DNA from: Schmidtea polychroa
Lineage: Eukaryota
Assembly: GCA_044892525.1 (NCBI GenBank)
Contig: CM097885.1
Coordinates: forward strand, 252,030,001-252,094,000
DNA length: 64,000 bases
Direction: 5' to 3'
Below the pieces are notes generated by a model that had not been told where the DNA came from, searched no databases, and was given only the letters and a program-made list of their open reading frames with translations. Of this stretch, positions 20,482 through 56,900 are shown in pieces (within the stretch, counting starts at the first letter, position 1; every line of letters begins with the position of its first letter). Made by a program: the position numbers and the translations under genes.

Positions 20482-22107
20482 TATATCCCCCTTAAAAAAA
20501 TTTTTCGTCCTCAAAATCTATGTTTTGATGTGATTATGTCCTTGGACGTAATTTTAAATACATTTAAATATTATTTGATTGTACTTTATACTTTAAATTT
20601 ATTACCTTAAAATTATTTCTTGTCTGTTGTTTAAACAGCCCAATTTAATTATTGTTATTAATCAATAACTAATAAATTTTTTTTAATCAATTTGATCAAT
20701 AATTTTAACTTTGGCCTGTAACATTGGAGAATTTTCGAAAGAAGTTATTTATTAAAATTAAAATTATGCTCGCATCCCTTTAGGCTTTACGAATACCAAA
20801 AAAACAGACACAATGATCCTATTCAAGAAGGAATTATATCAAATCAATGGTTATACCAGATTACATAATATTAAAAAATAATGTTAAATTAAATTATGGA
20901 TTTTATAATAAATTTATTTCTCTATTTTGAGAGAAGCTCAGGCGCTTTAACTCTTTCAAAACCAGTTGCCAAATTTTTATTATCTTTTTCGTTTATTATT
21001 ATATAAAAAAATCCAGCTAATTAGCTAATTGTAAATATTTTTGTAAATATTTCCCTCACTCTCTTGATTTTCAATACAAAAAAATAATTACATCCAAATT
21101 ACATAGTAACGAGTTTTGTTATATATTGTTTTATATTGGTTGTCAAGAGATTTTTGTGGGTGAGACGTCTGGCTTGCATGCAGAGTAGTGATGATATGCT
21201 GGTAATTTTGTGATCAGGAAAATTGAAATGGAAATTGACGAATCAAATTCTAATCAGCCATGAGTTGGACACACAGATCCACACCTAATATAGTCAGGGT
21301 CCTCTGTTTGTAGTTAATAACAACTCTTTCATCATTTCCTGATTTTCTATATATTGTTACCGGCCCATTTCCAACACTCAAGGTTATATGATGTGACTCG
21401 TCTCTGAGAGAAATGGACTGGGTCTAAATCTTAAACCGTGACCATTGGTTTCTCTCTACCGTTCCATTTTCGAGGCATATGTTCTTGTAGTAGTTTGCAC
21501 TAATTGAATAATTTTGATTCATTTTCAATTTCTCATAACGGACAAATGATTTTCGCGAGTTGAGGGTGTCGACATTTAATCCTTGAAATGTGATTCTCAT
21601 TTTCACCAAATCCAGTGGTTTCCAATATATATTGATTCCATTTATCCCTGGTTCTATTTCGATCAAATTTCGTATCTCTTTTGTGTGCACTTCTATCGGA
21701 ATTTGCGTGTACCACTTTGACATGTTCTGTCTCAATAGCCATTGGTATTTGAAATTTGGCTTTAACTTTCGTACCGAAAATACATCTCTATCATAATTCA
21801 GTTCAACAACTGATGCCGTATTGTCCAGTAAATTAATAATTTCTATTTGGTCTGTGATCTCGCATTTACAACTCCATACAATATTTGTTAGAGTGGAATA
21901 TATATATTCTCCATTCCCTGGATTTTGTTTACCGCATATAGCAAGTCAATCCTTTTGCCGCTCGTAACTGTAAAATATAATATCTCATTGATGTAGCTGA
22001 CTGGTGTTGGATTTTTTGTGAATTTCTGTTTCAATTTTGTTTGACCCGTTACTTTATTCTGCTTGGATCTTAAGGGGTATCTAGATTCATCTTCCTCTGG
22101 CACTAGT

Positions 22108-24011: not shown

Positions 24012-24948
24012 CTTCCGGATTTGATATATAACCAAACAAGAATCTGTATATTTGACATAATCAACACCTTTCTATGGAATGTGAAGATATGAATTGTGAT
24101 GAAAGAAGTGAAACCAGAGGATCCGTGTGTTTTCGGATGCAGAAATCAACTTTTTGTTGGAAAAATTAGCAGAAATAGCTGGTGTAAAAATTGAGGACAT
24201 ATTATCTGTTACAAATGCATTAAATATCGGCTGGGTAGTTGAGAGTCAAGATTCAGGATTTGATGATCAGGAAGAAACTCAAGAAACTGATGAGGAAATC
24301 TATGAACCTATAGATGAACATAAAGATACAGAAAATATTACGAATGATTGTATTGATCATGTCGTTGAAAATGTAATGAAATGCGGAGATGACGATTGTG
24401 AATGTATTAATTAATAAATTTTAGTTAATTATTTCATATATTTAATATTTCTTATATATTTATTTAAAAAATTAAACAACATAACTACTTTATATTTTAT
24501 TCAAAAATGTAGAAATTACATACAAAATAGCAACACCTGTTGCAAGTTTAATATAGTTTTTAAACTTTCTTTGATGCTCATCCATTTCCTTGGCATTTCG
24601 GGCGAGTTGATTCAATATACCCCATCCGCCATGGTGTAAACTTAGACTTGATTATCTAAAAAAATGAATATTATTAAAATATAGATTATAAAAGTATAAC
24701 TTCTTGAGACCATTGATAATAGTGTTCTGAGTCCCGTAAACCTTTTTCGATGATAATTTTCATATAAGTGAACCCTACAATTATTCGGGTCCACTTCATT
24801 TCTTCATCACATAGGCAATCGAATATTCTATTAAAATAATTTTTTTTTGTTTCAAGACAATCCGTATTCAGCATATCTTCGTAATCAATATGGTTGCCTT
24901 CAATAATTTTTTCGGTCCGATCGATCAGGAAACTGAGGCTTTCGATAA
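24012..24948. mobile_element. Internally deleted fragment of a related Polinton (inverted relative to the full copy)
   Basis: 24012-~24140 matches Polinton ~41190-41310, and ~24145-24948 matches Polinton ~40215-39430 (acidic ORF plus Bcl-2-like gene with the same intron). The copies are clearly diverged, not identical. Confidence 0.85.
24490..24948 (-). pseudogene. Bcl-2-like gene, 5'-truncated copy with a 14-bp deletion in BH2
   Basis: MKWTRIIVGFTYMK and the intron position are conserved. CCATGG[ATAGAAGCCAATGG]CGGATGG is collapsed to CCATGGCGGATGG, causing a frameshift. Confidence 0.8.
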
Positions 24949-35400: not shown

Positions 35401-35796
35401 CTAATGGTTATAGTAAATATCATTATTACCGACCATTTGCGGCGCTTTTTTTAAATGGGTACTGCTATCACTTGGTATCAAATCAATTCGAGATATGCAA
35501 ACCTCTTCACCTTTATTACTACCTGTTACTTCTACTTTGAAGCAGTTTAGATGTAAATTATTAATAGTCAATCTTATGCCATTGAACAATCTTTTCTTTG
35601 GATTAAGATTTCTTAGCAACATGACAAATACACTAACTTTCAGTTTCAAAAAATGGTATGGCATTCTTAATGGACATAATTTATGAAGTATTTCAATAAG
35701 AAAATCAATTGTGTCATTTGGATCATTTGGATCATTTGATACCTTAGAATCAATGCTCATATAATTAGCAGTTTTATCTGATAAAATTTTCAACAT
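35401..35796 (-). mobile_element. Helitron PIF1-like helicase fragment
   Basis: EILHKLCPLRMPYHFLKLKV..FVMLLRNLNP...LFNGIRL...TGSNKGEEVCISRIDLIPSD resembles the Helitron motifs P.H.L.LK, MLLRNL, NGTRL and IPRI.L.PSD. Confidence 0.8.
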
Positions 35797-38096: not shown

Positions 38097-38476
38097 TTTT
38101 TTTAAGAAAAATTAATAAAATTTGTTTATAAAATTTATAGTTTTTTCTGTGCTACAGGAAAATTGTGGAAAATTCAATTTTTTTAATTAATTTTTATCCC
38201 AAAATATTGAATGGGCTTCTAAATATCATTTGAACAAAAAATGAATAATTTAACCAAACCACTAAATAATTTGTTGTGAAATGTCATGTTGATAGTATCT
38301 GACTATTTATTACATTACAATAATATTACATTGGACTTTTATATTATTTCGAGTCATATTTACATTAAGGAATATTACAATACACTGGCATTCATCACCA
38401 TGACCATATTTAGCGCCTGTGACGAGTCGCATGTATGGTATCCCAATACATACATTGATTTAGATTTTGTTTTGTA

Positions 38477-39072
38477 AGTAGGGTATTGTGTGGACCCGGG
38501 AACAAAGACATATGACGTCATCAATGACGTCACAAAGACATATGACGTCACAAAGACATATGACGTCATACCCCCTACCCCCGGGGGAGAGGGTATTTAA
38601 AAAAAATTTTTTTTTTAAATTTTTTTTTAAATTTCTTTTTTTTTAAATTTCTTTAAAAAAAAATTTTTTTTTAATTTATATTACGTTGCGGTATTTTAAA
38701 AATATATTACGTTGCGGTATTTTAAAATTTATATTACGTTGCGGTATTTTAAAATTTATTATATTTTAATCATTAAATATATTACGTATTTTAAAAAACT
38801 TATTTTGACGAAAAAGTTGACAAAATTAGTATTACACACAATATAGTCTATCAGACAAGATATTCTGTCACACACACACACAAGGTATAAAAAATAATAT
38901 TAGTGTCCACACACGCAACAAGTTAGTGTTCTCATCGATAGCTATTGATATATTATTATTAATCTATATACTCCGAGTCTATCCGACAAAATATTCTGTC
39001 CCCTTATGGGTACTGCTCACAAGGGTAATGGTCACGCTCAACAACTCGCAAGGGTATTATTAAACAATGTAA
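38477..39072 (+). repeat. Left terminal inverted repeat (at least 596 bp)
   Basis: Reverse complement of 53424-53973. It contains 4x TGACGTCA, CCCCCGGGGG and 3x ATATTACGTTGCGGTATTTT. Confidence 0.92.
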
Positions 39073-39079
39073 TAAAACA

Positions 39080-39172
<93 letters not shown>

Positions 39173-39382
39173 ATTTCTATCACAAATCATGGTGAACAAA
39201 AAACATAGTCGAATATTATGAAATTAAGGTATTGTGTTAGCACACACTCGTTATAATAATTAGCAATATATATTTTTTATGGTGTATCAAATCAAAACAT
39301 TTCTTTTACATTTATAGTCTATCAACCAATCAAAATCATATGGTATTAGTATAAATGAAACATATTTTAAATTATTTTAGAA

Positions 39383-39911
39383 ATGTCGCAACCAAATTTT
39401 ATGGAAAATGTTCTAAACGGAATTGTCACCGCGAATATAGTCGACAGCCTCAATTTCCTGATCAATCGAACTGAACAAATCATTGAAGGTGAACATATCG
39501 ATTATCAGCAGATGATGGAGACGGAATCCCTGGAAACCAAGAAGTATTACTTCAATAGAATATTTCAGTGTCTTTTCGATGAAGACATGAAATGGACAAG
39601 GATAATTGTAGGATTCACCTACATGAAGATAATCATTGCAAAAGGTCAACATGACTCAGAACATTATTATCAGTGGTCTTTAGAAGTAAGATTTCTTTTA
39701 TAAGTTATATTTTAATAATATTCATTTCTAGATAATCAAGTCCAAGTTTACCCCATGGATAGAAGCCAATGGCGGATGGGGTGTATTAAATAAACTGGCC
39801 TGCAATTTTAAAGAAACTGATGAAATCAAAAGAAAAATGAAAAACTATATAAAACTTACAACTGGAGTTGTTATAATGTATATTATCTGTAGATATATGA
39901 ATAAAAATTAA
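39383..39911 (+). CDS. Polinton-encoded Bcl-2-family protein, 160 aa, two exons (39383-39685, 39732-39911)
   Basis: BH1-like LFDEDMKWTRIIVGFTY; after a 46-nt phase-0 GTAAG...TTCTAG intron comes BH2 FTPWIEANGGW and a C-terminal hydrophobic anchor LTTGVVIMYIICRY. Confidence 0.82.
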
Positions 39912-39955
39912 TGTTATTGTTTTTAATAGTATATTTAAATGAAAATAATTCAATT

Positions 39956-40282
39956 TTAAAATTTATTAACACATTCGCAATCGTCATCTCCACATTTCAT
40001 TATATTTTCAACGACATGATCAATACAATCATTCGTAATATTATCTTTAGGTTCCTCTATAGTTTCATAGATTTCGTCATCAATTTCTTGAGTTTCTTCA
40101 TGATCGGCAAATCCTGAATCTTGACTCTCAACTACCCAGCCGATATTTAGATAATATATCCTCAATTTTTACACCAGATATTTCTGATAATTTTTCCAAC
40201 AAAAAGTTGATTAATAATTCTAAATAATAGATAATTCAGTATTTAATTAATCATGTTAACCTTTTTCTGCAGTCATTTTCAT
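39956..40282 (-). pseudogene. Polinton accessory acidic protein; possible 41-nt intron (40220-40260) and a 14-nt deletion frameshift relative to the 24-kb copy
   Basis: INFLLEKL.EI.GVKIEDILS...LNIGWVVESQDSGF...CGDDDCEC is shared with 24145-24414. Confidence 0.5.
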
Positions 40283-40409
40283 CACTTTAAAACTATATTA
40301 TAAGTTTGTTTATAGATTTTCTTTGTTAAATTTGCATTTCATTTGCATTAATGTTGCAATTAATAAAGAGAAAAAACAAATATGACTAATACATTTATTA
40401 AATATAACA

Positions 40410-40829
40410 TTAAAAAAGTTGTGAAAGTCTAGCAGACATAATTTTCCAAATTGGAGAATACACATCATTATTATCAACTTTATATCCTTGGATTGCAATT
40501 GTTATATACCAATTTTCGTTTTCTTTGAAACCGATTTCATCAAAGGAATCATAAAATCTTGCATATCTGTTGTTGAACCAGGCATGTTGATTACAAGATA
40601 GATTCGTATTCAACCGTTTGAAAACCTCATCAATAGATTTAATATCTATCATTGAAAGCGTTCCGGATAAGAATTGAAATTTAGTTGGAATTAGCTTGAT
40701 CGGTGACGCCAATTTCATATTGATTTCTTCTTTTAAAAAATACATTTTATAGTTGTGGAACATTTGAACAGGTTGTACAAGTTCTGGAACAACTTTTGGC
40801 TTTTCAGTGCTTGAAATTTTCTTTGTCAT
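40410..40829 (-). CDS. Polinton accessory protein, 139 aa, unknown function (possible OB-fold ssDNA-binding protein)
   Basis: Intact ORF with upstream TATA (GGTATAAAAA on the minus strand) and a CCAAT box. The C-terminus WYITIAIQGYKVDNNDVYSPIWKIMSARL resembles the beta-strand pattern of viral SSB OB folds. Confidence 0.6.
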   Translation of the reverse strand: MTKKISSTEKPKVVPELVQPVQMFHNYKMYFLKEEINMKLASPIKLIPTKFQFLSGTLSMIDIKSIDEVFKRLNTNLSCNQHAWFNNRYARFYDSFDEIGFKENENWYITIAIQGYKVDNNDVYSPIWKIMSARLSQLF

Positions 40830-41087
40830 CGTGAATTATGATTAAAATGAAATGGTACAGGGTTTTTATACCTATGACTATTGTTTATCAACCAATCAGA
40901 TTGCTGTATGTCTTTGTTTAAATTGCATGTCATTTGCATTAATGTTGCATTAATGTTTTTATTATAACTATTGTTTTTTATTATTATTTCTAATATTACT
41001 ATTATTACTTATATTATTATTACTATTTCTATTATTATTATTTCTATTATTTCGATTTACAAAAACAAAACAATTCAACATAAAAAT

Positions 41088-41495
41088 TTATTTTGATACA
41101 ATCTGACTCGAGTGGTGATTTCTCAGAGTCTTCACCAAACACCATTCAACATATTGTTGATAACGGAAATTGCAACAGCTACATCCGAAAATGCTAGGAG
41201 CCTCTGGTTTCATTTCTTTCATCCCCCTTCCTATCTTGATATCCCATAGAAAGGTGTTTATTATATCGAATATCCAGATTCGTGTTTGTTGTATACCAAA
41301 TCCGGAATGATAGCTGGATCTCTATCTTGTAGAATTTCATTTAATTCTGGATAATAGAAGCATAATCTTTGCAGGATAATTGATTGATATTCATCTGTAA
41401 AAAATATATATTAATGTAATAATAAAAAATTTGAAATTACCATAATTTGCATGCTCTTTCATTGAGGTGATTGCGGAACTTTGTATGTTGTACAT
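41088..41495 (-). pseudogene. Polinton accessory gene, two exons (46-nt intron 41395-41440), 1-bp frameshift
   Basis: MYNIQSS...NY|DEYQSIILQRLCFYYPEL...PDLVYN continues in a shifted frame as QTRIWIFDIINTFLWDIK...FGCSCCNF. The 24-kb copy has the extra base (AACCAAAC versus AACAAAC) that restores the frame. Confidence 0.55.
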
Positions 41496-41616
41496 TTTTG
41501 TTGAATAAATGACAACTAAACCGAAAACATTTTGTTATAAATAATCATCAGCCAATTAGATTTCGACCAATCAGAATCATGCATTTCAATTGCATTGAAT
41601 TTGCAATGATAAATAA

Positions 41617-42081
41617 TTAATTAAGTGATAATAAAAAATCTAAAAATTCATTTCCTTCAATTATTGATTTAATTTCAGATATGATATTATCAACTATACA
41701 TTTGTAATCAATATTTTTTATTCCAAGAATTACTATCTTACCGCTAGCGAATATATTTACACACATAGGGTTATATTTTATATATCTCAAAGCTGGAAAT
41801 AATTCTGGTTCGTAAACACATGGTATTAATTTAGCCAATTCATTTAAATTACAAGAAAAACCTATATCGGAAGTTACGGTTATCGATTGTATTTCTAAAT
41901 CATAAACATTATATTCACTAGCTTTGATTATTTCCTTACACCCCATAATTCTACATTTACCAGTTTTGAAATATATTATTGGATATTTTTTACTTCTATT
42001 GATGAGTTGTTGTGGTTTCCCCATTGGAAATACCATTTTTGATACATCAGCTTTTGCCCTGTAATTTATATTTGAAAGCAT
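41617..42081 (-). CDS. Polinton-encoded TATA-binding-protein-like protein, 154 aa
   Basis: Both TBP repeats are recognisable: LSNI, IYFKTGKCRIMGCK (cf. LIFSSGKMVCTGAK), DLEIQSI..SDIGFSCNL (cf. DFKIQNM..CDVKFPIRL), YEPELFPALRY (cf. YEPELFPGLIY) and NIFASGKIVILGIK (cf. LIFVSGKVVLTGAK). Confidence 0.85.
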   Translation of the reverse strand: MLSNINYRAKADVSKMVFPMGKPQQLINRSKKYPIIYFKTGKCRIMGCKEIIKASEYNVYDLEIQSITVTSDIGFSCNLNELAKLIPCVYEPELFPALRYIKYNPMCVNIFASGKIVILGIKNIDYKCIVDNIISEIKSIIEGNEFLDFLLSLN

Positions 42082-42185
42082 TTTAATGAAATAATTATAA
42101 AAACTCTGTTATATATAGTTATTTTAAAAAGGAGTTCATTTAAATTATCAATATAAACAATAATTATATAGTTTAAATTTAAAAA

Positions 42186-42824
42186 ATGGAATTACGAAAT
42201 GATGCAGTATACCAAATCGTTGGTCCAAGTGGTAGCGGAAAAACATTATTTGTTTGTAAATTACTAAAATCAAATTTGTTCAAAACAAAATTCAACAATA
42301 TTTATTGGCATAGGGGCGCCGATGAAGAACATGGATTGACACAATCAAGTTTCTGTCAATTGAAAAACATGAAAATAGTAAAGGGTTTTGATAAAAACTG
42401 GTCAAGTCGTTTGAAGAAAGATGATGTCATCATTATCGATGATTTGTATCAAGAAGCCAATAAAGAAAAGGATTTTAATAATTTATTCACAAAAATCAGC
42501 AGACATGTTGGTGTAACAGTTATTTTCATAACACAAAATCTATTTCATCAAGGTGGTGCACATCGAACACGTAATTTAAATGTACAATATCTAGTTATTT
42601 TCAAAAATCCTAGAGATGCAACTGTCATTGATTTTCTTGGACGACAAGCATACCCTAATAACCGTAATTTTCTTATCAATGCATTTCAAGATGCTACGAA
42701 AATACCTCATGGGTATATATTTCTCGATTTCACACAACAATGTCCTGATGATATACGGGTAAAAACAGATATTTTCAACCCAAAAGGTGCCATGGTTTAT
42801 AAACAAAGTTCAAAACAAATTTGA
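42186..42824 (+). CDS. A32-like/FtsK-HerA DNA-packaging ATPase
   Basis: Walker A GPSGSGKT, Walker B IIIDD, Arg finger SRH, and ITQN; intact 212 aa. Confidence 0.93.
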   Translation: MELRNDAVYQIVGPSGSGKTLFVCKLLKSNLFKTKFNNIYWHRGADEEHGLTQSSFCQLKNMKIVKGFDKNWSSRLKKDDVIIIDDLYQEANKEKDFNNLFTKISRHVGVTVIFITQNLFHQGGAHRTRNLNVQYLVIFKNPRDATVIDFLGRQAYPNNRNFLINAFQDATKIPHGYIFLDFTQQCPDDIRVKTDIFNPKGAMVYKQSSKQI

Positions 42825-42837
42825 AAACATATAAATA

Positions 42838-43332
42838 ATGTTTTCAAAAACAAGGATATCGAGTAAAAAACAACCAAAAGTTCCACCAACAACTAGTTAT
42901 ACTCCATCTAAAGAACTTATTACAGAAAATTTTCCAGCAATGAATCTTATTTCGAAAAATCCTAAACCTAAACCTAAAAGTAAAACCACTAAGAAAGTAA
43001 AAGTTGTTAAAAATCATCGGAGTTTCCCGTTTTTCAATACATTGTTAAAAGCACCCAGTATGAAAAGAATGAATATTTTACAATCTTTTCCAAATTATGT
43101 TGTCGATGATTTACTCGATATTATACTTAAAGTAGTCAAAGGCAAGCTTAAAATCAGTAAATCTAAAAAGCAATTATTGAGTAAACATAGGAAACCTTTG
43201 CTATCATTATTAAATAATAAAAATTGTCAACAAATGAGAAAAATTATATATAAACAACAAGGGGGATTTATCGGTGCATTGATACCTTTTGCAATATCAT
43301 TATTAGGTGGAATAATAGGAAGTCGATCATAA
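42838..43332 (+). CDS. Basic virion core/membrane protein with an adenovirus pX-like C-terminus
   Basis: Lys-rich body followed by KQQGGFIGALIPFAISLLGGIIG, resembling the GG-F/I-L.LIP hydrophobic tail of adenoviral pX. Confidence 0.6.
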   Translation: MFSKTRISSKKQPKVPPTTSYTPSKELITENFPAMNLISKNPKPKPKSKTTKKVKVVKNHRSFPFFNTLLKAPSMKRMNILQSFPNYVVDDLLDIILKVVKGKLKISKSKKQLLSKHRKPLLSLLNNKNCQQMRKIIYKQQGGFIGALIPFAISLLGGIIGSRS

Positions 43333-43335
43333 ACA

Positions 43336-43512
43336 ATGGGTGCTAATCCTTCATTACCAGACATTAAATTTAATATTAAATCTTCTTGTTGTAATGGAGA
43401 AGATTTGGACGAACCCCGAAGACGAAGCCGGTTTCGGTGGAGTGGCAAAATTAAACAAAAGAGTTCCGAATTCGAAAAAGGAAACCCAGAAGTGGTTATC
43501 AGACCAGCTTGA
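43336..43512 (+). CDS. Small 58-aa putatively myristoylated ORF overprinting the integrase 5' end
   Basis: AAACAATGG context; MGANPS fits the MGxxxS N-myristoylation consensus; also KSSCC and a basic RRRSRFR. It falls below the ORF-track cutoff. Confidence 0.45.
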   Translation: MGANPSLPDIKFNIKSSCCNGEDLDEPRRRSRFRWSGKIKQKSSEFEKGNPEVVIRPA

Positions 43513-43781
43513 GTACAGTTTGAACAAACCAATGCAGAAACGATTCCCAACAAGAGTATATAAAACATATGGAATAAATGATTTATGGCAAATGGATTTG
43601 ATGGAGATGATACCTTATTCGAAAATTAACAATGGGAATAAATATATTTTAACATGTATTGATGTATTCAGTCGGTTTGCCCGAGCAATACCTGTCAAGG
43701 CAATATCTGCAGATGAAATGTCTAAAGCTGTTAATGATTTATTTAAAGATGGACATCCTAATAACTTGCAAACGGATTTAG

Positions 43782-43852
<71 letters not shown>

Positions 43853-44486
43853 TTTAGGTAAAGAATTCTACAACAGTAAAGTCAAGCAAATCCTCAATAA
43901 ATTGAAAATAAACCATTACTCGGTACATTCTCAATACAAAGCTGCTCATGTTGAAAGATTTAACAGAACATTGAGAGATAGATTAAAGAAATTATTCGTG
44001 CATCAAGGTAATAAAAAATGGGTAAATGCTTTACCGAAAATAATAACAAGTTATAATCATTCATCACATCGAGGACTGAATGGATTAAGGCCGGTTGATA
44101 TTACATCAAAAACATCATTGACTTCGAAGAAATCTGTAAAAATTACAAAACCGAAATATAAAGTCGGTGACCATGTTAGAATTAGTAAAATTAGTGCATC
44201 ACCATTTATTAAAAATTTCGATACAAATTGGAGTGATGAAGTCTTTGTAATTTCAAAAATAAATACTAGTCAGAATCCTGTAATGTATGTCATCCAAGAC
44301 AATGATAATAATATTGTACAAGGGAAATTTTATGAGCAAGAATTGCAAGTTATTCCTCCCCCAAAAGTATTTAGAATTCAAAAAATATTGAAAACTAAAA
44401 CGGTCGGCAAGGATAAACAATACTATGTCAAATGGCATGGTTATCAAAACCCGTCATGGATATCAGCAAAAGACCTAGTAAAGTAA
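43394..44486 (+). CDS. Polinton rve integrase with C-terminal chromodomain; exons 43394-43781 and 43858-44486
   Basis: DDE triad WQMD, LQTD and HVERFNRT. Splicing out the 76-nt GT-(ATT)n-TTTTTAG intron restores TDLG|KEFYN. The chromodomain is FRIQKIL...YYVKWHGY..PSWI. Confidence 0.93.
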
Positions 44487-45499
44487 ATTTTTATACTATT
44501 TTGCCTAGCAATAGTTGCCCGCTTATTCATTCAGATAATCAAGCCAGTAAATTCATGGTCAATCTCCAGAATCCGATTTCTTTAAATGGTGACTGGGAAG
44601 TTGCACTGCAAGATTTTACATTCGTGTACAACACATTCCCATTTTTTAGTCAATGTAAGATTGATTTCAAAAGGAATGCTATGAAAACATGTAGCGGTAT
44701 CTTTATTATCAGTAATTATGATAAAACATATCATATTCCGAATCAAATATTAGATTCGCATTGCTATATGTTTTACAAGGATGGATTAAATATCAGTTGT
44801 GATGTTAAACCATTTACAATAACATTCGAAACTATTGAAGATGCCAAACGAATGGGTTGCAATAAGTTGAAAAATATTGTTACGGAGACTGAGTATTTAT
44901 TACGTTTTAATCTATTTGAAGCAAACAGTGTAATGAAAGAAGAAATCAAAATATCTGTATCGTATAATGATGAAATTGAAGAATCATTTACCTTTGCTGA
45001 TGAATTATATTTTGATAAACTTGATGATTTACTTAAATATTTAAAGTTCAATTGTTCACACATATTTAAAAATTTGGAAATTGTGAAAGATTTGATGTTT
45101 ACCTTCAGTTTGAATGAGGATATTTGCGAAGTTACATTTGATAAAAATTTGTCAAATTCATTTGGATTAGATAAGCAAAAATATCGAGAAAAATCGACTG
45201 GTATACGCAAACAAAGAATACTTGAACATCATCAACAAATGTTCATATATACTAATATTATTGACCCTATAATTGTTGGTGATTCCAGTGTTCCTCTTTT
45301 GAAATCGGTATGGATTGGAAAATATGAACATGATGAAGTTGTCAATATAAATATCGATAATCCCATGTATTTACCAATAGTAAGTTCATGTATAAACAAT
45401 ATAGAAATAAATATTCGTGACGATAGTGGAAAACTTATAAACTTTCCAAAAGACTCAAAAACTCATTTGACACTACATTTTCGTAAAGTAGATGGCTAA
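44432..45499 (+). CDS. Polinton minor capsid (penton, single jelly-roll) protein
   Basis: FYTILPSNS...N.AS.F.VNL.NPI.L.GDWEVAL at the N-terminus and GD..VPLL...YLPI...I.NIEINIRD..G...F...T.LTLHFR at the C-terminus. The start may be 44456. Confidence 0.85.
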   Translation: MAWLSKPVMDISKRPSKVNFYTILPSNSCPLIHSDNQASKFMVNLQNPISLNGDWEVALQDFTFVYNTFPFFSQCKIDFKRNAMKTCSGIFIISNYDKTYHIPNQILDSHCYMFYKDGLNISCDVKPFTITFETIEDAKRMGCNKLKNIVTETEYLLRFNLFEANSVMKEEIKISVSYNDEIEESFTFADELYFDKLDDLLKYLKFNCSHIFKNLEIVKDLMFTFSLNEDICEVTFDKNLSNSFGLDKQKYREKSTGIRKQRILEHHQQMFIYTNIIDPIIVGDSSVPLLKSVWIGKYEHDEVVNINIDNPMYLPIVSSCINNIEINIRDDSGKLINFPKDSKTHLTLHFRKVDG

Positions 45500-45854
45500 T
45501 TCCGATATTATTAGTATGTATAGTGATAGCCAATCTGGCGGTGAATTACCATATTTTATTGGTAAACAGTACGGATCAGGTTGGTTAAAAACAATAGGGA
45601 GATTTGCACTTCCTATTCTTAAACGTATTGGTAGTTTTGGCATGAAAACTGCTAAAGACGTGATTATGAATGAACAGAAAATATTACCATCCCTAAAAAC
45701 AAATGCTTTAGCTGAGTTAGGGAAGGTTCTACCTGGAGTTGCTGGTATGTTTCAAAAAGATACGCCTCCAGCCACAGCTCCAAAACGTAAAAGACATGGA
45801 ATATCGCGTATAAACAAACGAATGAAAGGACATGGAACTATATTTGCAAAATGA
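45492..45854 (+). CDS. Conserved Polinton virion protein (PZ/pVI-like, amphipathic, basic C-terminus)
   Basis: SQSGGELPYFIGKQYGSGWLKTIGRFALPILKRIG; positioned between the minor and major capsid genes. Confidence 0.7.
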   Translation: MANSDIISMYSDSQSGGELPYFIGKQYGSGWLKTIGRFALPILKRIGSFGMKTAKDVIMNEQKILPSLKTNALAELGKVLPGVAGMFQKDTPPATAPKRKRHGISRINKRMKGHGTIFAK

Positions 45855-47074
45855 TTTGTGGTAAATCCGAATTATGTATATTTGATAGACCATCGCCTCA
45901 AGCTGTAATAGAATTTGGGGCATTTGAGGAAGTTTTTCCTATGAATTCAATTACTGATAGTAGAAATGATATCGAGTTTTATATTAATGGTTCGCAAACT
46001 GAATATTTAGATTTGAACGATACTTTATTGACTGTCCAGATCAAGGTTGTAGATAAAGATAGAAAAGTTTTGGATGCCAATGCAGATGTAATACCGAACA
46101 ATTTCATGTTTCATACTCTGTTTAAAGATGCAGTGTTGGGATTTAATAATATCAAGATTGAGGGCGGAAATAATACATTCATTCACAAGGCATTAATAGA
46201 AACTATTTTAAATTACAATTCTGATACTAAAAATACATGTCTTACACCTATGGGTTATGCATCAACAGATGATGAAAGAAAAAAGTGGGTTAAAGGCTCA
46301 AAATCATTCACTATGTGCTCATCATTACAACTCGATTTTATGGATCAACCGAAATATTTGCTACCAGGAGTTAATGTACACATTAGATTGAAAAGGGCCG
46401 ATTCTGCATTATCTCTTACTAGTGCAACTGGTGCACCAATATGCCAATTAGTTGATGCAAAATTATTGGTGAGAAGAGTTCGAGTAGACCCGTCAGTATT
46501 AGCTGGTCATCAATTGGGTCTTAATTCAAAACATGCAATTTATCCTTTAAAAACAAAGGAAATTGTACAATTTGCTATTGCTAAAGGTGCTTCATCATTC
46601 TATAAAGAACAAATATTTGGTGACAGAAGAATGCCTAATTTTATTCTGGTAACATTTCAAAGTGAAACGCAATATAATGGATCTTATACTGCTTCCAGCT
46701 CAATTTTCAAATATTTTGGTGTTACTTCATTGACTTTGTCGAAAAATACTGATTATAGAGAAACATATACTCAAGATTTCGAAAGCGATAATTACTGTGC
46801 GACATATATGCAGAGTATTGTTAGAAATCTGTGTTACTTAGATAAAAACTTGAATTGTGGAATTACTCTAGAAGAATTTAAAAGCAAATATCCATTTTTT
46901 ACATTTGTTTTAGCCCCTGATTTTGATTTAAATCAGAGTCAACTACCACAAAACGGAAATTCACGACTGGATATTAAGTTTGCAAAGGCCATTACAGAGC
47001 CGGTACATGTTATAATATATGGAGTATTTGAAAATGAAGTTCAAATTACTGCAAATAGAACCGTGCTAGTATAA
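45851..47074 (+). CDS. Polinton major capsid protein (double jelly-roll, PY)
   Basis: KSELCIF..P.PQ..IE...EEV.P......IEF.I.G....YLDL.DT.L at the N-terminus; QPKYLLPGVNV.IRL; intact 407 aa. Confidence 0.9.
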   Translation: MICGKSELCIFDRPSPQAVIEFGAFEEVFPMNSITDSRNDIEFYINGSQTEYLDLNDTLLTVQIKVVDKDRKVLDANADVIPNNFMFHTLFKDAVLGFNNIKIEGGNNTFIHKALIETILNYNSDTKNTCLTPMGYASTDDERKKWVKGSKSFTMCSSLQLDFMDQPKYLLPGVNVHIRLKRADSALSLTSATGAPICQLVDAKLLVRRVRVDPSVLAGHQLGLNSKHAIYPLKTKEIVQFAIAKGASSFYKEQIFGDRRMPNFILVTFQSETQYNGSYTASSSIFKYFGVTSLTLSKNTDYRETYTQDFESDNYCATYMQSIVRNLCYLDKNLNCGITLEEFKSKYPFFTFVLAPDFDLNQSQLPQNGNSRLDIKFAKAITEPVHVIIYGVFENEVQITANRTVLV

Positions 47075-47486
47075 ATGTATACAGAAACATAAAAAGTTGT
47101 CATGGAGTAAGTTGTTTTTTATACTCAGGATTTATTAAAATAGTTCTGTTCAGGTTAATCGAATTGGAAAACAAATATTAGGAAATGAATTTGTAGGTGT
47201 TTTTCCTCTCGATAAAATTCCTTATTTGAGCAATAATCAAGCCATAATCGTCAATACTCATTAGTCTCATCTTGGTGGAGAACATTGGATAGCTATATAT
47301 GTGAAACCTAGTAATATATTCGTATTCGATCCTATGGGTTTCTATTATCCTGCTTTGTTGATATCAAAACTTCAAACAATTGGGAAACCTATTGTATATA
47401 ATAAAACTATGTTTCAAAATCCATTGACTCAAACATGTGGTCAACACTGTTTGGCATGGTTGTTGTATAAAAAATTTGATGGTTAA
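47075..47486 (+). pseudogene. Adenain-like cysteine (maturation) protease, disrupted
   Basis: FVGVFPLDKIP, VNTH*SHLGGEHW, FDPMG, FQN and TCGQHC give catalytic H/D/C plus the oxyanion Q. There is an in-frame TAG at 47262-47264, a probable 47-nt intron at 47107-47153, and the 5' exon is out of frame with ATG 47075. Confidence 0.85.
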
Positions 47487-47844
47487 TAAATGTATACTGT
47501 ATGATTTTTATTTGTTGACTATTTTAATTATTTGTTAAATATTGTTAAATATTATTATTTGTTAAATATTATTATTTTATGTTTAAAATTTTATGTTTAA
47601 AAATATTATGTAATACTATTACATGTTCAGTGCATGCACAGTGCAAAGTAACAAAGCACTGAGTAATAAAGACATGTAAAGGTCATTATTTCGTCATGGT
47701 TTGTATAAACAAACATGTAGTGTCTTTTCCTATCCTATCTCTATTTTCATTGGTCGGTTAATAAAACCTTTAATATCTCTCTTATATAGTCTACACTTTC
47801 ATTTTTTCATCACTTTTAAAAATCTATTAATAATATTTAACAAC

Positions 47845-48122
47845 ATGAACAACAACAATATTCAAAGAGTTGACGGAAAGATCGTTGGAGGAATTAATGG
47901 TAAATTTATTATTTTATTATTTTATTATTTTTAATATGATTATTAGGTACTAATCAACAAATTAAAATGAATATCGACGGACAAGCTGTAGACACGAATA
48001 GAATAAATGGTAATAGTTTACTATTATAATCATTATTATTTTTATTATGCTTTTAGATGGAAATGTAATAAATACTTCTGCTGGTTCTGATGCTGGAAAA
48101 TTTCTTTCGAAAGGACGAAAAT
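47845..48122 (+). CDS. Polinton micro-exon gene (exons 47845-47899, 47947-48009, 48057-48122; continues into N gap)
   Basis: Two 47-nt GT-AG introns plus a third donor GTAAGT, all phase 1. The spliced frame is open: MNNNNIQRVDGKIVGGINGTNQQIKMNIDGQAVDTNRINDGNVINTSAGSDAGKFLSKGRK. Confidence 0.6.
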
Positions 48123-48288
48123 GTAAGTATTTATTTATTGTTATAAGTTTTNNNNNNNNNNNNNNNNNNNNNNNNNNNNNNNNNNNNNNNNNNNNNNNNN
48201 NNNNNNNNNNNNNNNNNNNNNNNNNNNNNNNNNNNNNNNNNNNNNNNNNNNNNNNNNNNNNNNNNNNNNNNNNNNNNNNNNNNNNNNN

Positions 48289-48570
48289 AAGAAACTTATG
48301 AAAAGAAGATTTATTCATGAAAAGAAGATATTTTAAAAGAAGATTTATTTATGATGATTTTGAAAGGAATATTTATGAAAAGAAGATTTATTCATGAAAA
48401 GAAGATTTATTTATGATGATTTTGAAAAGAAGATTTATGAAAAGAAGATTTATGAAAAGAAGATTTATTTATTTATGATGATTTTGAAAAGAAGATTTAT
48501 GAAAAGAAGATTTATTTATTTATTTATGATGATTTTGAAAAGAAGATTTATTAAATATGATGATTTTGAA
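48289..48570. repeat. Degenerate tandem repeat (GAAAAGAAGATTT / TATGATGATTTT units)
   Basis: Directly visible; it abuts an assembly gap. Confidence 0.85.
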
Positions 48571-48866
48571 CTTTATAATTAATAACTTTTATATATTATT
48601 TATGAAAATAAAATCTATTTTAGAAAATGAATTATTTATTTATGAAAACGAATTAAATTATATATTTTATAATATTTTTTATAATATTTTTTATAAGATA
48701 CTATTTAAAAGACAATTTTGAATAATATCTTACGAAAAATATCTAAAACTTTAAAAATGATTATTATCTTAATATTTTTTAAACATTTTATGATAAAAAT
48801 ATTTTCATAGGTTTGAAATACCAAAACTTTTGCAATAGTAAATATCATAATGACTGCGATGATATA

Positions 48867-49037
48867 ATGGAAAGATATTATAGTCATAAATATAACGGTG
48901 TCACCTACATCCTATGCCCTAAATGTGAGGTTATTGAAGTTATAACGTATAAGGAATTTTATAATAAGCATAGACTCCATCTCCAACAATTTAAACCTTC
49001 TAAGAAGTCTCTTTTCTATAGCTTATATGAATCGTTT

Positions 49038-49113
<76 letters not shown>

Positions 49114-52100
49114 TCAACAACAAGAATAATAATAATAATATCAACAGCAATAATAATATCAACAACAATAATAATAATATCAACAACAATAATAATAATA
49201 TCACCAACAATAATACTAACAACACCAATAATAATGATATAAACGAAATAACTAAACTAAAAGATCAAGTAAATAAATTAAATGATCAAATAAATAATCT
49301 AATTAATATGAATAAAAGAAAAAATAATGAAAAAATAAATTCAATAGCAAGTAAAAAATCTAAAGTTATTGATGTTATTACAATAAGTGATGATGAAATA
49401 ATCAACATAAGTGATGATGAAATTGATAATAGTAGTAGTAGTAGTAATATTTATTATAATAATGGTAATAATAATAATTATAATAATATTAATCAAATAG
49501 GTTATGGTGTCGTAGATGTTACCAGTGATTTAAATAATAATCATATTATATTAAAAATGGACGTTTCGTCTTTAGATTTAAAAACGGTCTCTGTACCAGA
49601 CATTTTAATAAATAAATTAAAATTATATGTAAATAAATTAAAATCATGTAAAATTCAATTTTGTCTAAAGGTGGAATTTATAAAAGATGATGAGTTACAA
49701 TCTTTTGTAATCTCGAATTCCGCCCGAGTTTGGAGCGATACATTCATTGACGAAGGTATTGCTCGTTTAAATGAAAAAATAATTAAAATTAATGAGAAAG
49801 GTAGTAATTGGACTATCAATAAAATAGAATACATAAGCTTTGTTCTGACTAAATTTGCTGAAATAAGTCGGTTAAGTGGTAGAAGTTTTATTGAAACCCC
49901 AAAATCTTTAAGAAACTTAAGCTGTCTCGTTAATGTAGTTAATAATGACCACTTCTGTTTTTTGTATAGTTTCTTGTCAATTATTAAATCTGATAGTATA
50001 AATAGGCAATATAGAAATCGCCCTAATTCATACAATCTTTCTGAAATTAAATTTGATCCTAATGATATGCCGATGAAACTATCAAATATAAGTAAATTTG
50101 AACAACAAAATCCAGGTTATAGTATAAATGTTCTTACTTATGTTCTTAAATATGATAGTATAAATAGGCAATATAGAAATCGCCCTAATTCATACAATCT
50201 TTCTGAAATTAAATTTGATCCTAATGATATGCCGATGAAACTATCAAATATAAGTAAATTTGAACAACAAAATCCAGGTTATAGTATAAATGTTCTTACT
50301 TATAACGAAAAGGCTTTGATTGACATTTCCGATGAAGATGCAGTTATGAAACATCCCTTTATTGATATAATATACAGGAGTAAGATAGTAGGAGCCATAC
50401 CTATCAATTTATTATTAATTGAAAAGAATGATAATTATCATTATCTTGGAATCACAGACCTAAATAGATTCCTTAATTGTAGGAATAGTTCAATCACTCC
50501 TGTTAGGATTTGTAGTCAGTGGTGCCCTAGATGTTTAAACGGTTTTAGGGTCTTTGCGATAAAAATCAGCTTGGTACTACCTTCTACACATTGCCTAAAA
50601 ATAAATATTTAGAATTTACTGATTGGAGTAAAACAGTCACTCCTCCCTTTGTTATTTACGCTGACTTTGAGGCTATCTTACCTAAAGACACTCGCTACTT
50701 TCAACGTCATCTGCCTATTTCTGCCGGTATGCTTTTTATTAATAATTTTACGGGCGTAAAAATTTATAAGTCGTTCACCGGTTTAGATTGTGTCGATCAA
50801 TTTCTTACTGAAATTGAAATGATAGGGAAATATATTGTAACTCCTTATTATTATAAAAATTATCAAAAGAAAATGATAATTACAGAAGAGCAACAATTAA
50901 TGTTTGAAAACAGCACATCATGCTATTTGTGCAATAAGCCTTTAGTTAGTCCAGTTAGGGACCATGATCATTTTACCGGTTTATATCTCGGTGCCGCTTG
51001 TACAACTTGTAATCTGTCGAGGCAAATTAGACATACCCTTCCTGTAGTATTTCATAATTTAAAGGGTTATGATCTGCATCATATCTTGAAATTTGGCCTT
51101 TCAAAATATCATTCATGGAATATTAGTTGTATTTATACTATTCCTTAGTCTTTTTGCTAGGATTGACTCATTAACTGTTAAATTTATAGACTCTTATCAA
51201 TTTGTCAGCGAGTCTTTAAATAATGCTGTCAAAACTTTATCATCTTTACCCTTGACCGAATCAGAATTTCAGGGTACAATAATAATTGCAAAGGGGATTT
51301 TTCCTTATGATGCCGCAACTTCATTAGAGGTTTTACATAACACTCGTCAGTTACCTCCTATTTGGAAAGATGTGACTCCCGCTGAATATGAGACAGCTCA
51401 GCGAATTTGGGTTGAAACTTCATGTACTTCACTTTTCGATTACATGATGGTTTATTTAAAACTTGATGTTTTCCATTTAGCCGATTTTTTCCAGCAATTT
51501 AGAGCTAAGTCCATTGCTCATAACCGACTAGAGCCATTAAATTTCTTAGAGATTCCAGGTATGTCTTGGAATTCAGCCTTATTGACTTTAAACTCTCCAA
51601 TTGAGCTCCTCGCCGATATGGAGATGTATAACTTTTTCGAGGGCGGTATCCGTGGCGGACTAACTTTTGTAAATAAACATTATGTAAAAACAGACCCGGA
51701 TACCGCATTGCTTTACATAGATATAAATAATTTATACGGTTGGGCTTTAAGTCAACCATTACCTTGCAGTGACTTTGAATGGGTTACTGATGATAATTTA
51801 TTAAATAATATAATTGTTGAATGCACACCGACGTCAATTCACGACAAACTGGACGATCTTCCCGTTGCCGCTGAAAAGATGTGTGTACCGGGTTCGAAAA
51901 TAGAGAAGCTGTTGCTTACACATAGCCCCAAGAGGAACTACGTTCTTCATTGGAGGCTTCTACAAATATTTTTTAAATTAGGTGTTAAAATATCAAAAAC
52001 ACATAGAGCAATTAAATTTAAACAAGATAAAATTTTCAAAAATTATATTAACACAAATACGGCGTTACGAGCAGCGTCGACAAATAAACTCGATAAAAAT

Positions 52101-52985
52101 TTTTATAAATTATTAAACAACAGTCTTTATGGCAAGACTGTTGAAAATCTTAAAAAACGTATTAATTTACGTCTGTGTAATTCTTCACAGAGATTATTAA
52201 CATTCTGTTCGAAACCGACTTTTCGTAAATCCACGAAAATCGATGATGACTTGATTTCGGTTTTATTGAGGAAGGACATAGTGTGTTTGAATAGACCTAG
52301 TTACATTGGTCAAACCGTACTTGATTTATCCAAACTCAGGATGTACCAGCTGCAGTATGAAGAGTTGCAAAAATATCGCGATGAATTCAACTGCGAAATT
52401 AATATCGTTGCTGGAGACACAGATTCCTTCTTCTTGGAAATTAAACATTGTAGTCTTGACATTCTTTTACCTGCGATGATTAGAGATCAATTATTAGATA
52501 CTTCGAATTATGACCCAAATCATCCTTTATATAGTAGGAACCTTGATTCTGTCATTGGCAAATTCAAAGACGAGAATAAAGGGTTATTATATAAAGATTG
52601 GGTGTTCTTGAGACCTAAATGTTACAGTTTGATGGGTGTTGAGGAAAGTATGAAGGCTAAGGGGATAAGTATGAAAGATACTGGACTAACACATCAGTCG
52701 TATCTAGATTGTTATTTAAATGATAAAATATACACAGTCCCTCAGTTTAGAATAACGTCAAAAAATCACCAACTTTTTAGTATTAAAAATAATAAAAGAG
52801 CCTTGACATGTAGAGATGATAAGCGAAATTGGGTAGATAAAAATCAAAGTTTGGCATATGGCCATTATAGGGGCGGTGATACCGATATATTTATAGATTC
52901 AACGGAAGCTATCTCAGCAGATGATACAGATGATTTCCATGATCCAGCAGATGATAATTATTTTGGACATGATTATTTTCGATGA
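48867..52985 (+). pseudogene. polB: Protein-primed family B DNA polymerase (pPolB) with terminal-protein region; two frameshifts (about 50540-50600 and 51130-51150)
   Basis: Terminal-protein region GSNW..SGRSFI.TP..L..NV.N.D..CF; ExoI IYADFE, ExoII FHNLKGYD, ExoIII Y.KLDV; pol A YIDINNLYG, B YKLLNNSLYGK, C GDTDS; also GKFKDE and LRPKCY. Confidence 0.93.
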
Positions 52986-53423
52986 TGTGTTTAAATTATT
53001 TAATAAATGTATTAGTCATATTGTCTTGAATATTTTTTAACAGTAACTTTGTGAACAATTTTTATACATTGTGTGTAATAATAATATGTTAAAGTTTTGT
53101 TAGTTACCTTTATGACCTTTACCCAGTGTGTTAATAAATTTTAGTGTATATTTAAAGTATAATTTCTTTGTTAATGTCTTGAATATTTTTAGCAGTACAT
53201 TTGTGACCTTTACCTTTGTGACCTTTACNNNNNNNNNNNNNNNNNNNNNNNNNNNNNNNNNNNNNNNNNNNNNNNNNNNNNNNNNNNNNNNNNNNNNNNN
53301 NNNNNNNNNNNNNNNNNNNNNNNNNNNNNNNNNNNNNNNNNNNNNNNNNNNNNNNNNNNNNNNNNNNNNNNNNNNNNNNNNNNNNNNNNNNNNNNNNNNN
53401 NNNNNNNNNNNNNNNNNNNNNNN

Positions 53424-53973
53424 TTACATTGTTTAATAATACCCTTGCGAGTTGTTGAGCGTGACCAGTACCCTTGTGAGCAGTACCCATAAGGGGACAG
53501 AATATTTTGTTGGATAGACTCGGAGTATATAGATTAATAATAATATATCAATAGCTATCGATGAGAACACTAACTTGTTGCGTGTGTGGACACTAATATT
53601 ATTTTTTATACCTTGTGTGTGTGTGACAGAATATCTTGTCTGATAGACTATATTGTGTGTAATAATAATTTTGTCAACTTTTTCGTCAAAATAAGTTTTT
53701 TAAAATACGTAATATATTTAATGATTAAAATATAATAAATTTTAAAATACCGCAACGTAATATAAATTTTAAAATACCGCAACGTAATATATTTTTAAAA
53801 TACCGCAACTTAATATGAATTTTAAAATACCGCAACGTAATATAAATTTTAAAAAAAATTTAAAAAAAATTTAAAAACCCCCCCGGGGGGTAGGGGGTAT
53901 GACGTCATATGTCTTTGTGGCGTCACCGATGGCGTCATATGTCTTTGTTCCCGGGTCCACACAATACCCTACT
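53424..53973 (-). repeat. Right terminal inverted repeat (at least 550 bp, inner end in N gap)
   Basis: Reverse complement of the left TIR, with differences in tandem-unit copy number. Confidence 0.92.
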
Positions 53974-56900
53974 TTTGTATAACTAGTCATGATAAACAAG
54001 GTAATAGTAAAATAATAGTTTCTACGTACGTTTGTTTCTAATCAATCAATACTATAGGAACATAAGTCGAGTAGATTCGAGTAGCACTGACGCTTGAATG
54101 TGTCAACGGTTACCTTTTTGTTTGCACATTAAGATGCCATTCTAAATCTGTAAACGCCATACAGGCATAAAATTGATTATCATGATTACATTTTTTGGTA
54201 CAGTAACCTGATATTTATAACATACAAATGTGAAATAATAAATATCCAGAGGCTTCACTTTGACAAAGATATTGTGACAATTATATGTTTGAAAACTGAC
54301 TTTTTAAAATGACATAATTCAATAGATAATAGTATCGTAAACGTGCTTGTATTAAATGACTTAATTTTTCTTTTTGAGGGTTATATAACAGGTCGAAGTT
54401 CTGACATTTTACGAATATATAATACTATTGTAGTAGTAATTCACTGTCTGGGTACCACGAATATATGAACTTTTTAAAGCCTAAAATTGTCAATTTTTTA
54501 TTTCATATCTTACGACTAATACATTGTCTAGAACAATGCTAATTTAGGAACCTCTATACTTCTTGCTATAATTTTTAAAGATCAAATCTTTATACAAAAC
54601 ATGAGTTTATACAATAAGTTATATTGTATACCAAATTTAGATACGTTTAATTTAAAAATAACAGATCGTTTTGGGTAGTGAGTGTACAATAAATAGGTTT
54701 CATATTATACCAATCCATAAATTGACGGTTATCATAGAAAGAATCCTTGCCTTTCCACTAAGTTCATAAACAGAGATTTTGGTTGGTATTTGTGAATACT
54801 AAAAACTTTTTCACATATCATGTACAGTACCCTAAAACAAAATTGCAAATTGTTTTATCACAATAACAATACATTTAAAGAAATAACTTTTATCAAATTA
54901 ACCCATATACAAGGCATATATGTTTATACAGTACTTCCTGCGACATTATGTACTTAAAATCACTTATTCATAAATTTATACTGAATACTAATAATTTAAC
55001 ACAATAATAATATTAAATACAATGCCAATTGAAAAGAAATCTCAGGTGAAAATTGAATGAAGTTCTTGTAGGAACATAAAACTAATCTGTACAAAATATT
55101 TATTGAAAGCAACATCTTTAAATAAAGTGTTTCTGGTATTTTCATTAATATAACTTCCAATTTTTATTGAGTACGAGCATATGAAGAATAAGAAAATTGG
55201 TCCTGTTGCCATAACTAATCCAATATAGAAGCGAGCTAGCGACCTGTTTGACAATCTGAAGTTTCGAATGTTGCAATATCGGTTGCTTGAAATCACGTAT
55301 TTTCGGGGGAAACAGACTTCCAGTAAATTGATAGAATTCCATTGTTTTGTATACATTTTTTTGAATAAAGGTGGCGATGTTCGAAAGAAGCATGAAAGTG
55401 TTTTGAATAACAAAACAATGATTTTAATAATGTATTTGAAATTTAATTATAATTAATATATTTATAAATTTGAAAGTCNNNNNNNNNNNNNNNNNNNNNN
55501 NNNNNNNNNNNNNNNNNNNNNNNNNNNNNNNNNNNNNNNNNNNNNNNNNNNNNNNNNNNNNNNNNNNNNNNNNNNNNNNNNNNNNNNNNNNNNNNNNNNN
55601 NNNNNNNNNNNNNNNNNNNNNNNNNNNNNNNNNNNNNNNNNNNNNNNNNNNNNNNNNNNNNNNNNNNNNNNNNNNNNNNNNNNNNNNNNNNNNNNNNNNN
55701 NNNNNNNNNNNNNNNNNAAATATCAAAATTAAATAGGTAAAAAATGATGAATAGCTTTTATTAATGTATTTTTATATTTAAGGAGTTTTGAAAATATTAT
55801 TTATTATATCGTTCATGTAGACTACAATAAAATATATAACAGTGTATTTTTTCAGTGTAAAAATTATTTAAAACTAAAATATGTTCATGACCACTTGTAC
55901 CACCGGTGGTTCACAGCTTATTTTACAAAATAGTTACAAATTAATTTATATGTATTTCATTTCTAAAAATATTTCATATATTCTAATGGAATTACGAAGA
56001 AAACCTAGACATCATGTAATGCGTTCGTCTTTTGCTAGAAGCTACAATTATTTCATAAATCTATGATTGGGCATGACCATCTTAACAGCTCAATGGGTTT
56101 CTATACTAACAAAACTAAAGTTTAATTGGACCATTATTTAGACCATTCGGACTGAAAAAGTGGGAACTTTAGAAAAGCAATCATTTATAAAACAATTTAG
56201 AGGGCTTGGTTATTTCACATTTGAATGTTTTCTTAACAAAGAATTACTTTTCTTATGGAAAAAAATCATATCGAGAAAATGGTGGGCATGTTTCGATTTC
56301 TATTTTAACAAATGAGAATACATTGAAAATAGAGATTGATACATTTCATTAGATTTAAATACATTACTTACAAATAATTAGCAAAAAATATGATGAGCCT
56401 TTGATGTAAGATTCAAGTTTACTCAGAACAAAACATGATAATAATAGTCTGCTATGAAATAGCCCTCTCCAATCTTTATTTCAAAGTAAAAAATTTTCAT
56501 CATTTTTACTCTATATTAACTTTGTGATGTTTGTATGTTTGTATGTGCCACGCAAATTTTGTGTGATTGGATTGAGCTGAAATTTGGCAAGTAGTATTAT
56601 TTCCATATTTCAATATAAATTCTTATCTATTCATTAACTTCGGATTAAAAAGATAACGTAATTATATCTAAATATGTTATATAAGTTTGAACCTTATGAA
56701 CAATTTCCTTATGGAGATTTCGAGTTGACATTTTTCAATATTTTATATGAAATATAATATAAATTAAGAGAGTGAAATATGTTTTCTATGGTTGAATTTT
56801 TGTTTTGAAATAACCTGAATCTTACTGCAAAGGCTTATCATACATATTTATTAATTGGTTTTGTGAATTGATGCTACCACAATCACAAAACTGCATTATA

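Follow-up and report, generated by a model that had tools for sequence, protein, structure and literature searches.

In 2021, Starrett et al. (PMC8502044) reported that homologues of Bcl2 and IAP had been observed in adintoviruses (Polintons/Mavericks), and Bcl2 cargo in this group of elements is thus already in print. In the parts of that publication available to us, Bcl2 is covered by one sentence and by three labels of supplementary maps (cavefish and Steinernema roundworm rows included), and the main text together with the available part of the supplement holds no flatworm term and neither splicing nor a host donor for Bcl2. BCL2-like motifs are also present in the Burro giant Gypsy-type retroelements of planarians (PMC6431247), and the anti-apoptotic IAP-like cargo of Burro1 has been described as protecting planarian stem cells (PMC13465017, citing Lee et al. 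2026). Planarian Polintons themselves are piRNA targets (PMC8532177). Bcl-2 proteins with tested functions are encoded by adeno-, herpes-, pox-, irido- and asfarviruses (PMC11209288), and the accessible portions of that source and of PMC11410931 make no mention of Polintons. The literature searched, with subscription papers and the repeat databases (Repbase/Dfam) outside its scope, nowhere describes splicing of a Polinton Bcl-2 or the donor of such a gene; within the literature covered, the Polinton Bcl-2 cargo is in print, but neither has its origin been traced nor its function tested.

The gene described here lies in a stretch of DNA of 64,000 nucleotides (the window, meaning the whole stretch analysed), within a 15.5-kb Polinton, a short way inward of its left inverted repeat. 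It resembles the Bcl2 of adintoviruses in being an accessory cargo of an animal Polinton equipped with polymerase, integrase, ATPase, capsid and protease genes, a likeness taken from the published description (PMC8502044). It also resembles Burro, a planarian selfish element with apoptosis-regulator domains (BCL2-like, BIR). Unlike the Polinton, however, Burro is a retroelement carrying its Bcl-2 domain inside a polyprotein, and the Burro1 cargo that has been tested is IAP-like and not Bcl-2 (PMC6431247; PMC13465017). The viral Bcl-2s differ from the Polinton gene in having tested functions, where that of the Polinton gene is a predicted one. The features of the element are as follows:

38477-53973: whole Polinton copy, 15,497 bp, with ends AGT...ACT and a 6-bp TSD (TTTGTA) at 38471-38476 and 53974-53979
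38477-39072: left terminal inverted repeat
39383-39685, plus strand: exon 1 of the Bcl-2 homologue, 101 codons, with a BH4-like helix, helix 2, BH1 (K-W-T-R, residues 70-73) and most of helix 6
39686-39731, plus strand: phase-0 GT-AG intron of 46 nt (GTAAG...TTCTAG), inside helix 6 and upstream of BH2
39732-39911, plus strand: exon 2 of the Bcl-2 homologue, 59 aa, with BH2 (WIEANGGW) at 39756-39779 and a hydrophobic tail (about 39855-39890) with basic residues on both sides
40410-40829, minus strand: ORF of 139 aa with no family assigned, conserved in a second Polinton family (32% identity)
41617-42081, minus strand: TBP-like gene (Pfam TBP, E 3.9e-15), with a counterpart in the second family (54% identity)
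42186-42824, plus strand: A32-type packaging ATPase (Pox_A32, E 2e-7)
43328-44486, plus strand: retroviral-type integrase (Pfam rve, E 9.4e-7), broken at 43782-43857 by a 76-nt GT-(ATT)n-AG block
44432-45499, plus strand: ORF of 355 aa without Pfam hit, likely a minor capsid (penton) protein
45851-47074, plus strand: likely major capsid protein of the double-jelly-roll (DJR) type; its frame of 407 aa is open, and its feature score against DJR-like clusters is 0.98
47130-47486, plus strand: adenain-like protease, its frame broken by a stop codon in this copy; the second-family homologue matches Peptidase_C5
48867-52985, plus strand: protein-primed family B DNA polymerase (Pfam DNA_pol_B_2, E 7.9e-19), its frame interrupted twice in this copy
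53424-53973: right terminal inverted repeat, its inner edge adjoining a run of N at 53229-53423

The terminal inverted repeats with their 6-bp TSD, the protein-primed polymerase and the retroviral-type integrase are those of a Polinton/Maverick (adintovirus), and the virion module is represented by the packaging ATPase, by the capsid protein, recognised by its features, and by the protease, recognised through its homologue in the second family. The capsid call came from a feature search only, with a recognition value under the threshold of the tool, and is to be read as a lead; no relative of this gene was found in the viral contigs searched. The 355-aa ORF is presumed to be the penton protein from its position. 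The block that breaks the integrase is likely an intron; it measures 76 nt in the window and 108 nt in another copy (L106:6787), and the integrase of the second family has none. Because its polymerase frame is interrupted twice and its protease carries an in-frame stop, the window copy is unlikely to be autonomous. The second Polinton family (L083-L088, L094-L103), about 64-73% alike in DNA to that of the window, encodes an intronless Bcl-2 homologue of 144 aa with W-S-K at BH1, and retains a single polymerase frame of 1389 codons in two of the three copies fetched.

The original prediction had placed a spliced Bcl-2 gene in this Polinton, with the two exons and the 46-nt intron listed above, and had named RNA reads across 39685/39732 as its check. 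Both the gene and the check held: the exact joint of 39685 to 39732, skipping 46 nt with GT..AG ends, is present in two of four sequencing runs, in contigs of X1 and X2, which come from one study, and absent from the two DNA-type runs, X3 and X6. The run labels on record are guesses and none is listed as RNA, the RNA nature of X1 and X2 being judged from the fact that both remove the 2972-nt GT-AG intron of a host Bcl-2 gene (L072/L092), which X6 reads through. At that gene, the depth of X1 is 488 on exon 1 versus about 4-20 over most of the intron, and X6 is identical to the genome, so that it does not count as independent support. The joined exons give a predicted product of 160 aa. Unspliced Bcl-2 sequence was also found in X1, and background DNA from the hundreds of copies could be its source.

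Several alternatives were considered and rejected. An intronless genomic copy was found at none of the 383 exact matches to the exon-2-start motif in the genome, a search that covers copies unchanged within the motif: 380 lie directly after the acceptor G, and the remaining three keep the intron with an altered acceptor. A frameshift in place of the intron is at odds with a block that starts with GT and finishes with AG in 65 of the 67 copies parsed, measures 42-51 nt and is skipped in RNA. Near-identical element sequence in X3 (organism B) suggested horizontal transfer between two organisms, but carry-over explains it, since a low-depth X3 contig is identical to the single-copy gene of this genome and stands beside the diverged orthologue proper to X3. 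As a separate observation, an X2 contig from a diverged copy (corresponding to window 39229-39383) ends with 15 A letters at the Bcl-2 start codon, and is possibly a polyadenylated transcript terminating upstream of the gene.

By its profile scores, the window gene is a member of the Bcl-2 family. Exon 1 alone reaches 20.4 bits against Pfam Bcl-2 (PF00452; E 7.7e-4), under the cut-off of 31.4, which is passed by window-family copies with an in-frame intron (up to 34.5 bits), by the second family (32.7) and by the host gene (46.2). When 38 other Bcl-2 proteins served as the profile, exon 1 scored 28.3 bits, the unspliced ORF 28.6 and the two exons together 47.8, against a mean of 27.7 and a maximum of 31.9 for 200 controls with shuffled exon 2; the junction was given as X in this test and the profile rows came from an exon-seeded search, which makes it slightly circular. 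BH2, which the original prediction expected once the intron was removed, is canonical: WIEANGGW (W-x-x-x-x-G-G-W). The fold check gave a divided answer: the family profile matched the PDB entries of Bcl-xL, Bax and A1 with E values from 6e-7 to 2e-5, and the model of the second family's intronless homologue (pLDDT 91.6) matched Bcl-xL by Foldseek (E 1e-4, TM 0.70), whereas the exon-1-only model had no significant match (Foldseek best E 0.2, top rows Bcl-xL; VIA best Z 6.9, an unrelated protein). The second family's model shares the compact bundle of viral Bcl-2s (PMC11209288), and its matches to the structures of these proteins are weak (best E 0.003, to an iridovirus protein; 8-23% identity), meaning no close kinship.

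The canonical NWGR of BH1 is missing, with K-W-T-R in all four subfamily representatives, and the region still aligns to the BH1 of Bcl-xL. The original prediction was right about W-T-R, and its likening of this motif to divergent viral Bcl-2s was not upheld: the host paralogue has W-S-R, and the viral BH1 motifs given in the accessible part of PMC9027176 retain the glycine (NWGR, SPGR). Related proteins have W-S-K (second family), W-S-Q or W-A-R, and P0006 has W-G-R. Since the host paralogue already carries W-S-R, W-T-R does not appear to be a viral adaptation, and the loss of the glycine was likely inherited from the host clade. Helix 2 is without the BH3 Gly-Asp, reading L-N-F-L-I-N-R-T-E at what should be the BH3 place of Bcl-xL in the register of the alignment. 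Where the original prediction expected a transmembrane tail after splicing there is a hydrophobic stretch, matching the host tail exon in position, but it is weaker than that term implies: its best 13-residue hydropathy is 1.93 and its best 19-residue value 0.99, compared with 19-residue values of 1.83 in P0004 and 1.55 in a fish Bcl-2-like protein. Membrane anchoring by this weakly hydrophobic tail is plausible.

The gene is abundant in the genome. All 150 scored exon-1 matches, the best 150 of 2399 candidates, are 96-100% identical, and another Bcl-2 subfamily, 63% identical to the window protein, adds at least 150 matches. Among 68 copies inspected, 67 could be parsed (one was not parseable); their introns occur in all three frames, exon 2 still has 59 aa in 61 of them, and 60 are fully intact, a share biased upward because the parsed copies are the best-scoring ones. 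Purifying selection acts on both exons. When the window copy is compared with other subfamilies, exon 2 has a dN/dS of 0.13-0.46 and exon 1 one of 0.09-0.18, although exon-1 dS approaches saturation and has no defined value for 4 of the 15 pairs. L079 and L081, the most similar pair that differs at all, gave 0.56 and 0.83, on few substitutions. The window holds a second, degraded copy of the Bcl-2 region (24144-24945, minus strand, 77% identity), with the intron kept and a 14-nt deletion in exon 2. In one subfamily (L076, L090) the intron is microsatellite-like. In L104 and L105 (G000:C2:188211001-188231000), terminal inverted repeats of about 1.3-1.5 kb take in the Bcl-2 gene, which thus stands at both ends; several other inverted pairs 5-15 kb apart suggest that this arrangement is common.

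A Pfam search of the genome gave Bcl-2 in 136 of the best 150 scored matches, and the Bcl-2 matches fall into host-type genes, the window Polinton family, the intronless second family and LTR polyproteins. Within this genome, the nearest relative of the window gene is a host Bcl-2 gene that is spliced and present as a single copy (L072/L092, G000:C1:268544056-268547579), and that resembles it in having a non-glycine BH1, BH2 and a tail. Outside its own family, the window protein scores highest to this gene (52.1 bits) and to P0004 (51.5), then to the second family (46.9), and the following protein reaches 31.7; the host gene is 48% identical to the second family's Bcl-2 and about 25% identical to window exon 1. 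The phylogeny with host genes that the original prediction had called for, intron position included, points the same way: in a tree of 56 rows, both Polinton families, the host gene and P0004-P0006 group together with support 94/90, just below the starred level of the tool. The tree left out P0015, an unrelated repeat protein, and eight proteins without the BH2 motif by pattern. Homologue searches yielded only three exon-1 fragments; of the related proteins, P0056 had no locus in viral or metagenome contigs, and P0004 had one weak 1.6-kb locus in the contig search.

The host gene carries BH4 to BH2 on one exon, followed by the 2972-nt intron and by a tail exon about 3 kb downstream, which is joined in RNA (X1, X2). 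Its intron comes after BH2 and the 46-nt intron of the window Polinton before it, so the two positions differ. It is likely, with the direction resting on gene structure, that the Polinton gene was captured from host mRNA and later gained a new intron. An ancestral Polinton would have received a copy of the spliced host mRNA, mRNA copying would have removed the host intron after BH2 and given the intronless form that persists in the second family, and the window family would later have acquired its 42-51-nt intron upstream of BH2. The reverse transfer, with the single-copy host gene being a domesticated Polinton Bcl-2, could draw on a tree without a tested root in which the Polinton rows as one group have a support of 77/26 only. 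Nevertheless, the GT donor of the host gene lies directly after the BH2 tryptophan, as in five of the nine host-type Bcl-2 loci examined, and the regain of an intron at exactly that site would be unlikely, which makes this transfer highly improbable. The window family offers a clear instance of probable intron gain in a virus-like element.

A Bcl-2 domain also occurs in tandem giant LTR-type elements of the same genome (L108:4687-9999 and L109), which are like the published Burro and whose polyprotein includes zinc knuckle, Bcl-2, viral fusion protein, protease, RT and integrase domains. These elements suggest that the host is likely a planarian-type flatworm. Against rows other than LTR ones their Bcl-2 domain does not exceed 19.4 bits, and it is not among the top nine hits of the window protein; by these pairwise scores it is likely a separate capture, although a clade shared with the Polinton Bcl-2 was not rejected in a tree test (p-AU 0.24).

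As for the role of the Polinton gene, the reading that we favour, by a modest margin over doubt, is that of a pro-survival protein, probably captured from one host gene, by which cells that bear the element would stay alive. The 160-aa protein would fold as a Bcl-2 helical bundle, its tail would hold it at the mitochondrial or ER membrane and, having no BH3 killer motif, it would restrain host Bax/Bak-type proteins during expression, copying and integration of the element. This reading is preferred because the BH3 killer motif is missing and because the likely host donor has a pro-survival exon layout: according to the part of PMC7022251 available, BH4 to BH2 on one exon with a separate tail exon is the layout of pro-survival genes, and the BH3 signature is needed by pro-apoptotic members. 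Against it stand a BH1 without glycine, a residue described as important for Bcl-2 family interactions (PMC9027176, seen in part), the additional absence of the arginine in the second family (W-S-K), a tail weaker than in relatives and an exon-1-only model without a significant fold match. The changed BH1 suggests a narrow or non-canonical binding of partners; no paper on BH1 glycine mutants was found in the literature search. The same features could also mean that the fold was kept for an action outside the BH3 groove or outside apoptosis (autophagy, ER calcium or innate-immune signalling, for example), with the role carried over from the divergent host paralogue. Most members of the clade are indeed without canonical NWGR, and PMC7022251, in the part seen, describes out-of-groove and non-apoptotic functions of Bcl-2 proteins. 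However, the arginine of BH1 is present in all four window-family representatives, BH2 is retained, and viral Bcl-2s with a changed BH1, such as ORFV125, still bind BH3 motifs, more weakly (PMC9027176, in part). Such a role is rather unlikely.

A protein with an altered BH1 and a weak tail might instead be a decoy or antagonist of the host paralogue or of other pro-survival proteins, promoting death for, as an example, late release of element DNA or particles, and membrane-active and gasdermin-like genes are on record in adintoviruses (PMC8502044, section 3.2, among the parts available). Such a killer role is very unlikely in view of the missing BH3 signature, needed by pro-apoptotic members (PMC7022251, as far as seen), of the hundreds of intact copies that are tolerated and of the spliced RNA. 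Less probable still is a passenger that recent transposition amplified and that has no present function: a large number of copies are young, with hardly any differences among them, and not all are whole (24 intact among the 29 best copies parsed), but the dN/dS well under 1 between subfamilies in both exons, the retention of the gene in two diverged Polinton families and its splicing in RNA largely refute this idea, which is barely credible. Adenovirus E1B-19K keeps infected cells alive until particles are assembled, and the Polinton gene could do likewise in an infectious virion cycle, with the integrated copies as proviruses. This proposal, possible but on balance doubtful, adds particles to the pro-survival activity that it has in common with the preferred explanation; a capsid-like gene, a packaging ATPase and a protease are present, and a full frame of 427 codons is open in about 95 of the 150 best-scoring capsid matches (hand count). 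The polymerase and protease genes are nevertheless interrupted in the window copy, and anti-death cargo does not single out a particle cycle of Polintons, because the LTR retroelement of this genome carries Bcl-2 too. The presence of a Bcl-2 gene does not by itself establish the true viral lifestyle for which the original prediction argued.

The pro-survival reading can be extended to a wider proposal, in which Polintons and Burro-type retroelements, two unrelated kinds of giant selfish element in one flatworm lineage, would each have captured a host Bcl-2 independently, the Polinton protein expressed from hundreds of loci would set the death threshold of stem cells, and the gene would have passed from the host form through an intronless capture to a form with a new, sometimes microsatellite-like intron. 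As a whole this proposal is speculative and rather unlikely; if it were true, the whole path of a viral Bcl-2 would be visible in one genome. This one genome holds the likely donor together with the intermediate that has no intron and the form that is spliced again, and the effect of the Polinton gene on the survival of host cells becomes testable, whether it serves the element, particles or the host (in an RNAi-capable animal, if this is a planarian).

Some further loci deserve mention. Seven near-identical intronless Bcl-2 genes with canonical NWGR form a tandem cluster at G000:C4:89.9-90.8 Mb (L061-L067). The P0006 cluster comprises thirteen intronless Bcl-2 proteins of the same clade as the window protein, twelve of them with 161 aa, on public contigs of up to 13.7 kb, and is possibly another mobile element in a related animal. 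Elsewhere in the window, LTR retroelement fragments (RT, RNase H, integrase), a Pif1 helicase domain and a hAT transposase were noticed at 21424-23882, 35401-35796 and 59447-60946, all on the minus strand. Two ORFs of 202 aa lie at 533-1141 and 3092-3700 (both minus strand), the first of which matches Parvovirus NS1 (E 4.5e-14) and may be an endogenous parvovirus-like fragment.
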